64,000 nt of DNA from assembly GCA_001792345.1 (NCBI GenBank), contig MGGJ01000001.1, positions 217,710 through 281,709 of the forward strand. The letters are read 5' to 3'. The number at the start of each line of letters is the position of its first letter. The first letter of the stretch is position 1. Positions 56,291-59,955 of this stretch are shown here, piece by piece. The position numbers and the translations under genes are program-made. This DNA comes from Candidatus Woesebacteria bacterium RIFCSPHIGHO2_01_FULL_39_32. Lineage in GTDB: Bacteria > Patescibacteriota > Microgenomatia > UBA8517. The notes under the pieces were generated by a model, which was given only the letters and a program-made list of their open reading frames with translations, made no database searches and was not told the origin of the DNA.

Positions 56291-56902
56291 TTGTTATACT
56301 TCAAAAAATCCTATATTGTGCGATTGAGATTACTCGTTATCGTTCTTTTTATACTTTTGCTTATTGCTGTAGGGATAATAATTTTATTGATCAAACAGCA
56401 AAACTTTTATTTTTCTTTTGAAAAAGCCATCTCACCCACACCGACTTTAACGATAGCACCAACACAGACTCCGACACCTTCTCAAAACCCCACCAAGAAA
56501 GGGGAGTTGAATAAAAATTTTTCGATCCCGCTTACCGATTCTTCGGGTAACTTAGTAAGCGGAATTGAATACACCCTTACCGAATACGAGATAACAGATG
56601 AAATTAGAGTTAAAGGACAAACAGCAAAGGCAATTTCCGGAAGAAAGTTTCTGGTTATTAACATAAAAGTAGATAACCAGTTAGATCGCGTAATCGAGAT
56701 AAATACAAAAGACTATATAAGATTATCTGTCAATAATAGTGATAATTGGCTTGCCCCTGATATTCACAATGATCCCGTGGAAGTACAAGCTTTATCGACT
56801 AAATTTACTCGACTCGGTTTTGCGATTAACGAGAAGGATATGGGTTTTGAATTACAATTAGGAAAATTGAACGGTCAAAAGGAGAACTTACTACTTTTCT
56901 AG
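56291..56902 (+). CDS. Hypothetical membrane-anchored protein with Pro/Thr linker and beta-rich C-terminal domain
   Basis: N-terminal TM helix, a PTPTLTIAPTQTPTPSQNPT linker, and a 120-aa beta domain. Confidence 0.4.
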   Translation: MLYFKKSYIVRLRLLVIVLFILLLIAVGIIILLIKQQNFYFSFEKAISPTPTLTIAPTQTPTPSQNPTKKGELNKNFSIPLTDSSGNLVSGIEYTLTEYEITDEIRVKGQTAKAISGRKFLVINIKVDNQLDRVIEINTKDYIRLSVNNSDNWLAPDIHNDPVEVQALSTKFTRLGFAINEKDMGFELQLGKLNGQKENLLLF

Positions 56903-56960
56903 AATTACGGCCTTGATCTTCAAAGTTTTAGCGACGGAGGGAGACAAATTTGAAGAAAAA
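56902..56960 (+). repeat. 55-bp direct repeat copy 1 (GAATTAYGGCCTTG...TTAGCGAYGG...GACAAATTTGAAGAA), left boundary of the repeat-punctuated island
   Basis: About 47 of 57 positions are identical to 59900-59955; its 3' end is the island motif. Confidence 0.7.
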
Positions 56961-57278
56961 TTTGAGATGTTTGTCTACTCACTTCCGGTTACAGGTAACT
57001 CTGATTCTGTACTATCAAAAACCACTCCCCCCGTTGATTGTTCGGCTCGTGATTGGTGTACAGCACGCTGAGAGAGTCTTGTGGGATCATTTTCGGCAAT
57101 CCGAGCAGATCCATCCACGAGACAACCCCAGTGTAACCTAGTGTTTAAAGGACAACTTCCGCAAAAGGGACCTGCAGAAAAATGAGGTCTGTCCGCGCTC
57201 ATATTTAACCTTAAACAGTTAAGTGGTAATTCGCAATAAGCAATAATCTATCTTCCCGTGGAAAAGTATTATTATTAC

Positions 57279-57298
57279 AAACAAATTTGAAGAGAAAT
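57279..57298 (+). repeat. Island motif copy (degenerate: ACAAACAAATTTGAAGAGAAAT)
   Basis: Matches the CAAATTTGAAGA core. Confidence 0.4.
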
Positions 57299-57313
57299 AC
57301 TTTATTTATTTTA

Positions 57314-57466
57314 TTATCTGTTACGTATACCTTGAGTTGGCGTTGCTTCTTCCATTAATAATTCCGCGGATTGTGTAAGATAACTTAAACCATAAGCCGG
57401 GTCAAACTCTTCGAACGGATCTTTATCGGGGTTAATTGCCTTCAGTTCCCCTACAACCTCGTCCAT
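57314..57466 (-). CDS. Short ORF (50 aa) homologous to the middle of the 61056-61385 coiled-coil protein; fragment or mini-paralog
   Basis: MDEVVGELKAI... versus MDEVMGELKAI in 61056-61385. It falls below the ORF-track length cut-off. Confidence 0.3.
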   Translation of the reverse strand: MDEVVGELKAINPDKDPFEEFDPAYGLSYLTQSAELLMEEATPTQGIRNR

Positions 57467-57528
57467 TTTCTAAAAAATTACACTCTTCTGAAAGTCAAGG
57501 AAAGAGGCAAACTTCACTCATATTAAAC

Positions 57529-57723
57529 TTAAGCCTTCTCGATATATTCGATAGCCTCTTGCCCATTTGGGTATGATATTTGTATCTTATCGGTAAAGGG
57601 GCCTACGACTTTTGCAGTCAATTCAAGCCTGACTCCAAATTCTTTTAATTGTGACAATTCGGTAACCCTTTGTAGCGTTTCTTGATTCAAACCTCTTTCA
57701 AAATTTCGATCAGGCCCTACCAT
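57529..57723 (-). CDS. Hypothetical small protein
   Basis: 64-aa ORF in the island; no motif. Confidence 0.25.
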   Translation of the reverse strand: MVGPDRNFERGLNQETLQRVTELSQLKEFGVRLELTAKVVGPFTDKIQISYPNGQEAIEYIEKA

Positions 57724-57807
57724 ATATTTGATTAATTGTAATCATAACAAGTCATCTGAAAAAAGCAATTTTTCCTACATACCAGATACATATTCAAAAT
57801 TCTAAAT

Positions 57808-57829
57808 CCGGGGTCAAATTTAGGATAGA
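57808..57829 (+). repeat. Island motif copy (CCGGGGTCAAATTTAGGATAG)
   Basis: Matches GGGGTCAAATTT. Confidence 0.5.
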
Positions 57830-58102
57830 ATTCGTTATTTACGTTTTCGGAGCTGCCTGTGTATCAGAAGGGGATGTTTCAACAAAATGCGCTGCTTCTT
57901 CTAACGCATCGGGCGATAACATTGATTCAAGCGGTCCTCCCTTCTCAATATCTAAAATTACGCTTTGAATATGAGAACATCAGGACTTCTAATTATTTGA
58001 GCATTTTGTTCAGGGGTTCTTTGATCTGCCGATCCGTGACCTTTAAGTATTTCTACCATAAATGATATTTTATCAGATTAAAAGCTGGTTAAAAATTTAT
58101 TA

Positions 58103-58786
58103 TTGATTTTATTAAACATAGACTTTAAGATGAAAGTTATGAGGAAAATTTCATTCTTATTATCTCTTTTGTTTATTCTACTCTCAACATCTATAGTATT
58201 TGCTAAACCGCCAAATCCCGGAGGCGGCAACGAAGATTTTGTGCCGATACTGTATTCCGTTTGCATCGATCCAGGACACGGTGGAAGTGAGGTAGGATCC
58301 GTAAACGGTAGCTTAAAGGAAAGTACGGTAAATCTTGAAGTTGCGAATCTTTTAAAAAATAAACTTATGAATTATGGCTATAATCCTGGTTTGATTTTTA
58401 TGACGAGAACAGATGATTCTGATAAATCGAATGCAGACAGATATAATTTCTGTAACTCCCAAAAAACTGCAGTTTTGATTTCAATCCATCATAACGGTTC
58501 AAGCGATTCTTCGGTTGATTACACAAGCGCGCTTTATTTCAAAGGTGAAGATAAAGAGATTGCCAATTATGTTACTCAAAACATTTCGCAAAAATTAGTT
58601 CTGCCAAATAATGGAATACGTAGGTATGCATCCGGAGTTTTACTCAAATCGAAAATGCCGGCTACAATTTCAGAAGGATTTTTTCTCACAAGTTCAGACG
58701 AGTATAATCTTATCAAAAATTCCGACAGGCTTGATCAGGAAGCTGAAGCTCTTTTTTCTGCAATCAACACATTCTTCGGGAAATAA
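58103..58786 (+). CDS. N-acetylmuramoyl-L-alanine amidase (Amidase_3 family) with signal peptide
   Basis: VCIDPGHGGSEVGSV ... ISIHHNGS ... SEGFFLTS motifs of the zinc amidase family (AmiC/CwlD/phage endolysin type); cleavable N-terminal hydrophobic leader. Confidence 0.75.
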   Translation: MILLNIDFKMKVMRKISFLLSLLFILLSTSIVFAKPPNPGGGNEDFVPILYSVCIDPGHGGSEVGSVNGSLKESTVNLEVANLLKNKLMNYGYNPGLIFMTRTDDSDKSNADRYNFCNSQKTAVLISIHHNGSSDSSVDYTSALYFKGEDKEIANYVTQNISQKLVLPNNGIRRYASGVLLKSKMPATISEGFFLTSSDEYNLIKNSDRLDQEAEALFSAINTFFGK

Positions 58787-58793
58787 TCCGAAT

Positions 58794-59840
58794 TCAAAAG
58801 TTTTCTTTTTTCAAATCAAAGCTAACTTTGTAGGTAAATAAGCTTATGTCTTTTTGATCATATAGTGAATATTTAAGTTTTTCTTCAGCATCAAGTACGA
58901 CAACCGTTCCCTTAACTTTTCTTTCTTCAGCCAGATTTCTTTTTACCCAAGAAATATATCTTAAAGTTTGACCGACAACTGCGTCAGAAGACCTTCCTTT
59001 TTTAAGCTCTATAACAAGATATTCCTTGTCGTCTTTTGACTTTGCCAGAATATCAATAAATCCAATATCTGTGGGGTATTGCTGACTTGTTAGTTCATTT
59101 CCCTCACCATATATAAGATCATATTTTTTACCGAATATTGTTTTGTCCCAATTTGCTATAAGAAAGTCTTCAAGGTGTTTTTCCATTCCGAATACGACAG
59201 GATCTTCGATTCCAAGTTCTTTCAATTCTTCCTCGATTTGTTCTTCATTTTCGTCGACCTTTCCTGCAAAAGGACTTGCGCCTGCAATATCCCCAAGCAC
59301 TCCGTCAAGTTGCCACAAACTTATATTGTGCATATTTGATAATTCTAAAAGAACTTCATTAATTTTTTTGAATTTATCACCAAATTTATAGTTTCTTTGA
59401 AAACTCGGAAAAAGGTTAAGTTTTTTAAGAGCAGCCTCACTTTTGGTATTCCAGATACCATATTTTTCAGGGTAAACAACCATAAGAATTGCTGTAATAA
59501 TTGCCCTTCCTATGCCTTTAACCCAGTAACCTCCATTTTCAATAAACTCTGTATTTAAACGCTTCTCTAGGGTTAATTTCTCATCCAATACATGCTTTAA
59601 AAATCGTTTGAGGGCATTCATATCGGAAGTAATAATATTTCCTTGCCTATGAATTCCTTCCCAATGCAGATTGTTTTTAATAAGAAGAAAAGATTTAAAG
59701 TCCTCCTTGGTAAGTTTATCCAAATTTTTGGGTTGAAAAAGCTGACCGTATTTGCCGATAACTTGCTGTTCAGAAGTACCTTGCCACCAAGGATCATTTA
59801 CAGCTTTTTCTTTGATAACCTTCTCAATCACAGAACTCAT
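58794..59840 (-). CDS. PD-(D/E)xK nuclease with NucS-C/DUF91-type endonuclease domain fused to an unknown N-terminal domain
   Basis: C-terminal IGFIDILAKSKDDKEYLVIELKKGRSSDAVVGQTLRYISWV matches the GxIDLLAxD...LVVIELKRG...QLLRY signature of NucS/EndoMS C-domains. Confidence 0.55.
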   Translation of the reverse strand: MSSVIEKVIKEKAVNDPWWQGTSEQQVIGKYGQLFQPKNLDKLTKEDFKSFLLIKNNLHWEGIHRQGNIITSDMNALKRFLKHVLDEKLTLEKRLNTEFIENGGYWVKGIGRAIITAILMVVYPEKYGIWNTKSEAALKKLNLFPSFQRNYKFGDKFKKINEVLLELSNMHNISLWQLDGVLGDIAGASPFAGKVDENEEQIEEELKELGIEDPVVFGMEKHLEDFLIANWDKTIFGKKYDLIYGEGNELTSQQYPTDIGFIDILAKSKDDKEYLVIELKKGRSSDAVVGQTLRYISWVKRNLAEERKVKGTVVVLDAEEKLKYSLYDQKDISLFTYKVSFDLKKENF

Positions 59841-59899
59841 ACTATAGGGAATTATACTGCAGGTTTTTTAGTTTGTCGAAAAATTCTTACTTCTTTACA

Positions 59900-59955
59900 G
59901 AATTATGGCCTTGCCTTTCAAAGCATTAGCGATGGTGGAGGACAAATTTGAAGAA
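59900..59955 (+). repeat. 55-bp direct repeat copy 2
   Basis: See 56902-56960. Together the two copies bracket a 3-kb module (amidase plus NucS-like nuclease). Confidence 0.7.

Follow-up and report, generated by a model that had tools for sequence, protein, structure and literature searches.

What is delimited by two imperfect direct repeats of about 55 bp that lie 3 kb apart, with an amidase gene and a nuclease gene between them, in the genome of Candidatus Woesebacteria bacterium RIFCSPHIGHO2_01_FULL_39_32 (contig MGGJ01000001.1, positions 217,710 to 281,709; this whole stretch of 64,000 nucleotides is called the window below)? A sequence-only reading had taken them for the marks of a site-specific insertion around a single module. 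The analysis described here, which covered ~70 kb of the ~1 Mb genome (the window and 6 kb past its right edge, to ~70.3 kb), leads elsewhere: each repeat is a copy of a short motif joined to a non-coding extension, and the motif divides ~20 small accessory-gene cassettes in an array of ~11 kb that runs from 56.9 kb in the window to ~6 kb past its right edge. Our tentative reading, to which we would give a little less than an even chance, is that the motif is the cassette-boundary recombination junction of an integron-like system that has neither attC sites nor the integrase IntI and is specific to this clade of the candidate phyla radiation (CPR).

The repeat pair itself is real. The two copies (coordinates of all features are given in Table 1) match in direct orientation at 50 of 62 positions, or 81%, in agreement with the ~47 of 57 counted earlier, and the last 18 nt of both are the motif of the island, as had also been claimed. 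Their relationship goes beyond this common motif and above chance, because the 44-nt arm alone, with the 18-nt motif excluded, matches at 34 of 44 positions, against 6-24 of 44 (mostly 8-17) for other pairs of motif copies in the same register. The motif of the right copy starts 3 nt past the stop codon of a 101-aa open reading frame (ORF), and the copy lies upstream of the nuclease gene's own promoter; the left arm abuts and overlaps the stop codon of a plus-strand 203-aa gene, the similarity entering that gene by a few bases.

The arm is also a recurring unit, because a third, weaker long form shares 17-19 of 44 positions with the two arms (common to all is ACAGAATT...TTCAA) and three long forms resembling them occur in L198, a locus with a homologue of the nuclease. 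Extensions of this family stand before the nuclease cassette, at the array end, more weakly before the 101-aa cassette and, in a related form, in L198, and they are one family among several: others are a 145-nt two-motif unit and a "type C" unit common to L007, the source-population locus, and L014, an orthologous locus. The common denominator of these families is the short motif, and the long repeat is therefore not the "full-length" site. The 55-bp repeat consists of the boundary motif and a non-coding extension of one family; the suggestion that the short copies are truncated 55-bp sites has to be turned around, the 18-20 nt being the part conserved across species and the arm one of several family-specific additions.

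On the gene strand the motif reads TTCTCCAAATTTGACCCC (18 nt), or ttTTCTCCAAATTTGACCCC in the 18-20 nt form. A search of the window for GGKSWCAAATTTGRAGAA with at most 3 mismatches gave 13 matches, against 1.58 expected and a maximum of 5 in 100 shuffles; 11 of the 13 fall within 56940-63980, all as plus-strand matches, in a stretch whose small ORFs are read from the minus strand. Along the source contig there are ~20 copies over 11 kb, 17 of them good ones in L007 2129-13325 (window 56.9 to ~68.1 kb) and all on the gene strand. This orientation holds for 32 of 32 copies over five species contexts, and one more copy in L202 brings the motif-bearing contexts to six. The left 56 kb of the window, which is core genome with 50-plus core genes (glycosyltransferases, a two-component system, the dcw cluster through FtsA and FtsZ), contains no good copy. 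Where the motif stands relative to ORFs is equally regular: after each, the stop codon is followed at 2-56 nt (median 9) by the first copy, the distance from motif to next start codon is more variable (26 to ~200 nt), and second copies may follow 84-142 nt onward without an intervening ORF. In an information-content profile of 25 copies (three species), conservation is confined to a block of ~20 nt and does not extend to the flanks, and copies flanking a unit are direct, not inverted, repeats.

Is the 3-kb interval a unit of this array? It is at least three boundary-delimited segments, not one module, because degenerate motif copies inside it delimit them. Read on the gene strand, the motif at 59955-59938 and its arm (59937-59894) are followed by the nuclease promoter, the nuclease gene and the convergent amidase gene (8-nt gap), then by a degenerate motif at 57829-57810, two small ORFs, a second degenerate motif at 57297-57278, the GC-rich stretch and the terminal motif plus arm (56957-56896). 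The 1.1 kb previously described as lacking confident genes does hold the two degenerate motif copies noted at the time, together with the two small minus-strand ORFs, the 50-aa one of which has an 11-residue and 56-nt fragment in common with a 109-aa ORF of the island and is perhaps what is left of a cassette. The stretch that had been called atypically GC-rich is mildly so, with a peak of only 48% GC; it was also considered as a structured RNA, an idea dropped when it gave no Rfam match and folding that was not significant (z = -1.3 and -1.7).

The nuclease has relatives with which this picture can be compared. Pfam NucS_C covers residues 239-315 of the 348-aa protein, and the NCBIfam NucS equivalog models reach 36 bits (cut-off 216) and 31 bits (cut-off 252), over residues ~200-323 only; among the candidate defence families of PADLOC, PDC-S02 matches its C-terminal half at 1e-51. 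Judged by these matches it is not a NucS orthologue, and the label "NucS-type" suits its C-terminal PD-(D/E)XK domain and nothing more. The family has >1,100 relatives, mostly in CPR bacteria. In L199 (nuclease identity 75%) the gene is bracketed by itself, with one motif 31 nt before its ATG and another 10 nt after its stop. A motif lies 2 nt after the stop in L202 (75%) and 47 nt after it in L198 (84%), where three neighbouring genes are followed by copies too and three of the four are long forms; L206 (80%), L200 (71%), L201 (67%) and L203 (64%) have no motif. Gene order differs as well, L199 having nuclease, acyltransferase, 101-aa homologue and PD-(D/E)XK where the window has PD-(D/E)XK ... 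101-aa, nuclease. In none of these seven other contexts does Amidase_3 stand beside the nuclease, which, with the internal motif copies and the separately bracketed gene of L199, removes the claim that the repeats enclose one module.

Units between motifs are reshuffled among species, as seen in two orthologous loci retrieved with Obg as probe. In L014, from Woesebacteria RIFCSPLOWO2_01_FULL_39_10 (Obg 69% identical), obg comes right after the 203-aa gene, across a 46-nt spacer without motif, where the window has a 7.1 kb array between them; the locus has a motif array of its own on obg's other side, beside a type I restriction-modification (R-M) system, which includes a SUKH-1 immunity-type gene and a GNAT gene. 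In L013, whose Obg is 87% identical, obg is followed by CHRD and then by the 203-aa gene; 36 nt ahead of the start of this last gene stands a short motif, and 3 nt past its stop another, without arm, and then an unrelated SRAP gene. Motifs bound the obg/CHRD block in one genome or more, and likewise the 203-aa gene, and L007, L013 and L014 differ in the order of the two. Around the array the neighbourhood on the chromosome is conserved; what the array contains varies. In blastn comparisons between arrays, the homology blocks begin and end inside motif copies: L007 2597-3112 corresponds at 84% to 5446-5963 in the reverse complement of L014 (L014rc), an interval that comprises the complete 153-aa cassette with a motif at either end, and the L007 block after it (3119-3201) has its counterpart 1.5 kb onward in L014; ORF-less units of 145 nt also match motif to motif between the two. 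For the orthologous 153-aa cassette (g153), the motif halves that face it are conserved at 7/9 and 8/9 positions and the outer halves at 6/9 and 6/9, a weak indication from a single case. A separate observation concerns L129, which is 98-99% identical to L014: just downstream of obg a segment is replaced, ~75 nt versus ~560 nt (L014rc ~8774-9324), and the L129 allele has a motif-like copy, CACTCAAATTTGACCATC, at the replaced segment.

Could more familiar kinds of element account for these observations? The proposal that the long repeats are attL/attR-like duplications from the site-specific insertion of a single 3-kb module (amidase, nuclease and 1.1 kb) fits the arm identity, far above that of other pairs, the position of the left copy against a gene's 3' end with similarity running a few bases in, and the difference between species in the region downstream of the 203-aa gene. 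What can be kept of it is that the repeats belong to a cassette-boundary system next to a variable region; as a discrete attL/attR element it is very improbable, there being three long and at least 20 short copies instead of two, an arm that recurs in L198, two motif copies inside, a nuclease that is bracketed alone in L199 and an amidase found in no homologue context, and the ORFs of the interval (Amidase_3, the NucS_C-domain protein and small ORFs) include no integrase or other recombinase domain. A phage or plasmid origin was rejected: viral contigs give chance-level single motif matches and lack the palindrome core described below, and the interval has no blastn match to phages or plasmids. 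The empty site with a single repeat that such an insertion predicts does not exist at strain level, because all recovered assemblies of the population carry the same island, with the same cassette content, at 99.8-100% identity; proteins of the window are matched exactly in groundwater metagenome contigs and in GCA_001792545.1. An apparent 61-nt indel in a public metagenome-assembled genome (MAG) is a run of Ns, not strain variation (a scaffold gap in MGGT01000006.1 covers window 57012-57164). A canonical integron or CALIN (cluster of attC sites lacking integron-integrases), its repeats being attC sites recombined by IntI, would share with the array the co-oriented small ORFs, mostly of unknown function and each followed by a repeat, the occasional ORF-less unit and a content that varies between species. 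It is almost certainly wrong, the folding and R-box tests having refuted it: in ten boundary sequences folded as DNA, on one or both strands, no copy forms a hairpin beyond shuffled sequence (the repeat copies have z = -0.64 to +0.78, and one short copy at z = -1.89 owes this to an unrelated AT hairpin), the pair RYYYAAC...GTTRRRY at 50-150 nt occurs in 0 of 30 boundary regions on either strand and neither box is in the motif, flanking copies are direct, cassettes have their own promoters, and there is no tyrosine recombinase in ~70 kb. Use of the host Xer system, as in integrative mobile elements exploiting Xer (IMEX), was set aside also: the best motif-centred 28-mer matches 18/28 of the dif consensus, from which CPR dif may differ, and no 28-mer in 70 kb reaches 23/28. 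Repetitive extragenic palindromes and bacterial interspersed mosaic elements (REP/BIME) or miniature inverted-repeat transposable elements (MITEs) were discarded on the missing hairpin, the direct flanking copies and the 56 kb of core genome without a good copy (within ~70 kb). No tRNA was found as integration target or content, Rfam gave no match at E <= 1 over L007 1-14500, and the GC content of the island (31-39%) lies close to that of the rest of the window (32-43%).

The main rival is of another kind: the motif may be a regulatory DNA element that each gene carries with it, either a -35/UP-type promoter module or a site of stoperator type that an island-specific transcription factor or a roadblock protein binds, with reshuffling by unrelated means and the long repeat being two related leaders. 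We consider this unlikely, and still a serious candidate. The intergenic position and strict co-orientation with transcription suit it, as do the lack of a recombinase nearby and the TTGACC within the motif, which serves as -35 box for the L199 nuclease (TTGACC-N17-TATAAT-N10-ATG), at L007 2129 and in the orthologous pair L007 2592 / L014rc 5441. However, a -10 box with at least 5/6 matches follows at 16-17 nt in 4 of 32 copies only, the other 28 being without one; most cassettes have a separate and better promoter downstream of the motif, just upstream of the ORF (TTGATA-N16-TATAAT at 60633-60606; the nuclease promoter at 59879-59851, which the promoter scan reads as TCGACA-N17-TATAAT); the motif lies nearer the stop codon before it than the start codon after it; pairs of copies bracket units that contain no ORF, and the 56 kb of core genes have no good copy. 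Motif-to-motif homology blocks are not explained by regulation alone. A reading of the nuclease gene's -35 box as a degenerate motif copy is rejected, because the motif-less L206 has the same TTTCGACAA box. Could the motif instead mark transcript 3' ends, as a signal for factor-dependent termination or RNA processing just past stop codons? Its median distance of 9 nt from the stop codon, on the transcribed strand, would agree with this, and intrinsic terminators are almost absent from the island (two terminator-like sites versus 4.9 in shuffles, none at a motif, which also disposes of the motif as an intrinsic terminator), so that some other termination signal would be needed. Yet motif and flanks form no structure (z about 0), second copies follow 84-142 nt on with no ORF between, no motif stands after the 50-plus core genes, and reshuffling is left unexplained; we judge this quite improbable.

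The recombination-junction reading that we prefer has its own difficulties. No recombinase, integrase or transposase gene was found in the window and the 6 kb beyond it, nor any recombinase in the flanks of L014, L198, L199 and L202. The conserved block, 18-20 nt and weakly symmetric with an 8-bp palindromic core, is shorter than the core sites typical of tyrosine or serine recombinases. The nuclease homologue of L206 has no motif nearby in spite of its 80% identity, the L129/L014 segment replacement is not cleanly motif-bounded, and two-sided clean motif breakpoints are available for one protein-coding cassette and for ORF-less units. There is no strain-level polymorphism among the population assemblies, and excision or insertion at the motif is not directly observed because these are identical in cassette content. 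A motif lying in a gene's regulatory region would, moreover, also travel with the gene and appear at homology breakpoints.

Assuming that the motif is a junction of this kind, each cassette would be a small accessory or defence-type gene with an 18-20 nt double-stranded motif as its end, a few bases past the stop codon, and it is at this motif that cassettes would be gained, lost and reordered. Recombination at the motif, the most economical mechanism, is something we infer, as is the enzyme responsible. One possibility is site-specific recombination by a recombinase encoded elsewhere in the genome; another is short-homology exchange, for example after DNA uptake, which longer shared units might aid. 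A circular or linear unit with one motif copy could integrate at a resident copy and would then be flanked by direct motif copies, and this would explain both the gene cassettes and the ORF-less units with two copies. The 44-nt arm would be an ORF-less leader unit, placed before the nuclease cassette and at the array end, and where a cassette is joined directly to the motif, its TTGACC could act as the -35 box of the cassette's promoter.

A wider proposal, which we think possible and on balance doubtful, is that a clade of Woesebacteria/Microgenomates has its own system of cassette capture and shuffling, analogous in function to integrons and mechanistically distinct from them: a simple double-stranded site of 18-20 nt that also donates a -35 box, with neither attC hairpin nor adjacent IntI and acted on by a recombinase encoded elsewhere or by the cell's machinery of DNA uptake and recombination, would assemble defence and accessory genes beside R-M systems and could even move core genes, obg among them. 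CPR bacteria (Patescibacteria) have tiny genomes with few recognisable mobile elements, and how their accessory and defence genes turn over is poorly understood. If the proposal is right, it would describe a new route to modular gene exchange in a large uncultivated radiation, without the defining parts of the integron, and would supply an 18-nt signature by which such arrays, and their recombinase, could be located. If the motif proves to be purely regulatory, it would still mark out a regulon specific to the island, in organisms with transcription signals that have hardly been studied.

Table 1. Positions of the boundary motif copies, long repeats and genes in and beside the array (window numbering)
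Feature	Position	Strand	Remarks
203-aa membrane-protein gene	56291-56902	+	Flanks the array; position relative to obg differs between species
Left long repeat	56896-56957	-	18-nt motif (56940-56957) and 44-nt arm (56896-56939); last boundary element of the array
Mildly GC-rich stretch, up to 48%	56975-57235		No convincing ORF
Degenerate motif copy CAAACAAATTTGAAGAGAAA	57278-57297	-	Inside the 3-kb interval
Small ORF, 50 aa	57314-57466	-	
Small ORF, 64 aa	57529-57723	-	
Degenerate motif copy GGGGTCAAATTTAGGATAGA	57810-57829	-	Inside the 3-kb interval; divides nuclease/amidase segment from small-ORF segment
Amidase_3 (N-acetylmuramoyl-L-alanine amidase)	58130-58786	+	N-terminal signal-peptide-like segment
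348-aa protein, C-terminal NucS_C/PD-(D/E)XK nuclease domain	58794-59840	-	
Sigma70-like promoter of the nuclease gene, TTCGAC-N18-TATAAT	59851-59880	-	10 nt before ATG
Right long repeat	59894-59955	-	Motif (59938-59955) and 44-nt arm (59894-59937)
ORF, 101 aa, coiled-coil	59959-60264	-	
Third, weaker long form	~60320-60377	-	Motif 60360-60377 and arm-like ACAGAATT...TTCAA; between the 74-aa and 101-aa ORFs
ORF, 74 aa	60390-60614	-	
ORF, 94 aa	60691-60975	-	
ORF, 88 aa	61056-61322	-	
ORF-less unit, ~145 nt	61413-61557	-	Motif copy at each end; 28-bp near-palindrome at 61441-61468
ORF, PD-(D/E)XK/Cas4-like	61561-62238	-	
Sister ORF-less units	62284-62443, 63837-63980	-	
ORF, 262 aa, membrane-anchored	62467-63255	-	
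ORF, ~134 aa, membrane protein	63372-63776	-	
Short motif copies	60647-60664, 61030-61047, 61413-61430, 61540-61557, 62284-62301, 62426-62443, 63330-63347, 63963-63980	-	
Degenerate short motif copy	63837-63854	-	

The cassette ORFs of 59959-63782 are all on the minus strand, with motif copies between them, and cassettes usually have their own promoter. The amidase gene, earlier called the only plus-strand gene of the island, has that distinction inside the window; past its edge the array also encloses the oppositely oriented (plus-strand) housekeeping gene obg and a CHRD-like gene. The far end of the array holds an MwoI-like R-M system, and an R-M or helicase-nuclease defence system occupies the array's 5' end, where an integron would carry its integrase, in three species: MwoI-like in L007 (1-1427), type I HsdRSM in L014 (9427-14721), and MmeI-like with a phospholipase D (PLD)-helicase in L198 (1-5645). 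Two ~100-aa coiled-coil cassette genes of the array, the 101-aa ORF and L007 4244-4540, are paralogous (64% identical), and a third relative is found in L199 (~9922-10173).

Some of the nuclease homologues have neighbours of another sort. In L201 and L203 the gene lies in ordinary defence islands with R-M systems and PD-(D/E)XK genes, L201 having in addition a faint TIR-domain match and L203 an AAA_13 ATPase. The nuclease gene is directly downstream of, or overlaps, a small PD-(D/E)XK gene (PDDEXK_3 or PDDEXK_1) in L198 (9550-11047), L201 (9539-11044) and L203 (9312-11044), which suggests that a PDC-S02-like nuclease and a small PD-(D/E)XK gene form a conserved two-gene defence module; the pairing is absent in the window.

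Of the 145-nt ORF-less unit the window has three copies and the contig five. Each window copy includes a 28-bp near-palindrome, ATTCTCACATT-CTTGAG-AATGTKRGAAT, which in its near-perfect form (ATTCTCACATT-CTTGAG-AATGTGAGAAT) lies at 61441-61468, 62317-62344 and 63864-63891, and at L007 ~3764-3900 and 4140-4170. Its exact 20-nt core recurs in 88 metagenome loci (L110-L197), which represent many environments; no viral contig has it. In many of the 88 the palindrome adjoins genes for ArsR-type winged helix-turn-helix (wHTH) proteins or overlaps a TTGAGA-N17-TATTAT promoter before them, and these proteins are homologous to the product of the island's own wHTH gene (L007 3901-4170). The palindrome is probably the operator of an autoregulator, widespread in CPR bacteria; the 11-6-11 geometry would likewise suit the core site of a tyrosine recombinase.

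A few further observations concern the surroundings of the array and loci recovered along with it. At ~54.8-56.3 kb gene strand and GC skew both switch, from plus strand and positive skew over 1-54.8 kb to mostly minus strand and negative skew beyond, and transcription therefore converges there. The switch could mark a replication terminus beside the variable array; no dif-like site was found there, judged by the same consensus and with the same reservation for CPR dif. L122 (Ga0154395_114; positions 1070-1994, reverse orientation) matches L007 at 99.9% and then continues, starting mid-ORF, as unrelated sequence that has no match elsewhere; this sequence includes a strong promoter, TTGACA-N17-TATACT, and a segment rich in GC and possibly structured. 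Either a chimeric assembly or a variant strain may be the explanation, and the contig was put aside as possibly chimeric. When loci of other lineages were screened by k-mers for analogous boundary motifs, nothing convincing emerged. L034, an unrelated Bacillota MAG locus retrieved via Obg, has 25 CRISPR-like repeats with a period of ~73 nt at 11542-13330, which have no bearing on the array.

How does the array compare with systems already described? Our literature search found no description of such arrays in CPR bacteria, and each of the known systems resembles it in part. Integrons and CALINs likewise have co-oriented small accessory and defence genes, a boundary site after each, some ORF-less units, and a content and order that vary between related genomes. 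The array differs from them in its motif, which is double-stranded, 18-20 nt long and free of inverted repeats, hairpin and R''/R' boxes, in lacking IntI and attI (~70 kb), in cassettes with their own promoters and in enclosing an oppositely oriented obg. Elements bounded by attL and attR resemble the 3-kb interval in its ~60-nt imperfect direct repeats, one of them abutting a gene's 3' end, and in the accessory genes between; here there is no integrase, more than two copies and internal motifs are present, and the enclosed genes do not travel together elsewhere.

In the neisserial intergenic mosaic elements (NIMEs), dRS3 repeats of 20 bp flank RS units of 50-150 bp, and exchange probably proceeds by recombination at or around the repeats after DNA uptake; dRS3 is an inverted repeat and is spread genome-wide. 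The array resembles NIMEs and minimal mobile elements in that a repeat of ~20 bp brackets non-coding units of 50-150 nt and gene cassettes in variable intergenic regions, and differs in a motif that is asymmetric, strictly co-oriented and restricted to one island, with no sequence relationship to the neisserial repeats. The stoperators and start-associated sequences of mycobacteriophages are phage repressor sites; they too are short asymmetric motifs in many short intergenic regions, in one orientation to transcription. The island has no phage context, with viral contigs giving only chance-level single matches to the motif and a phage collection none to the 3-kb interval.

The rAID-1 (recombinase-associated acquired interbacterial defence) clusters of Bacteroidales are defined by a tyrosine recombinase that is XerD-like, lies 5' and shares at least 44% identity with BF9343_RS08045, at least two co-directional downstream genes, repetitive intergenic sequences, and a GC content skewed relative to the recombinase or the genome, and their intergenic repeats were described as "reminiscent of integrons" (Ross et al., bioRxiv 10.1101/471110). 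The present array belongs to another phylum, has another motif and other gene content, carries R-M genes on its 5' side and a recombinase at neither end, and equals the genome in GC content. What it shares with rAID-1 is the combination of co-directional small genes and repetitive intergenic sequences and, in the L014 array, the SUKH-1 immunity-type gene.

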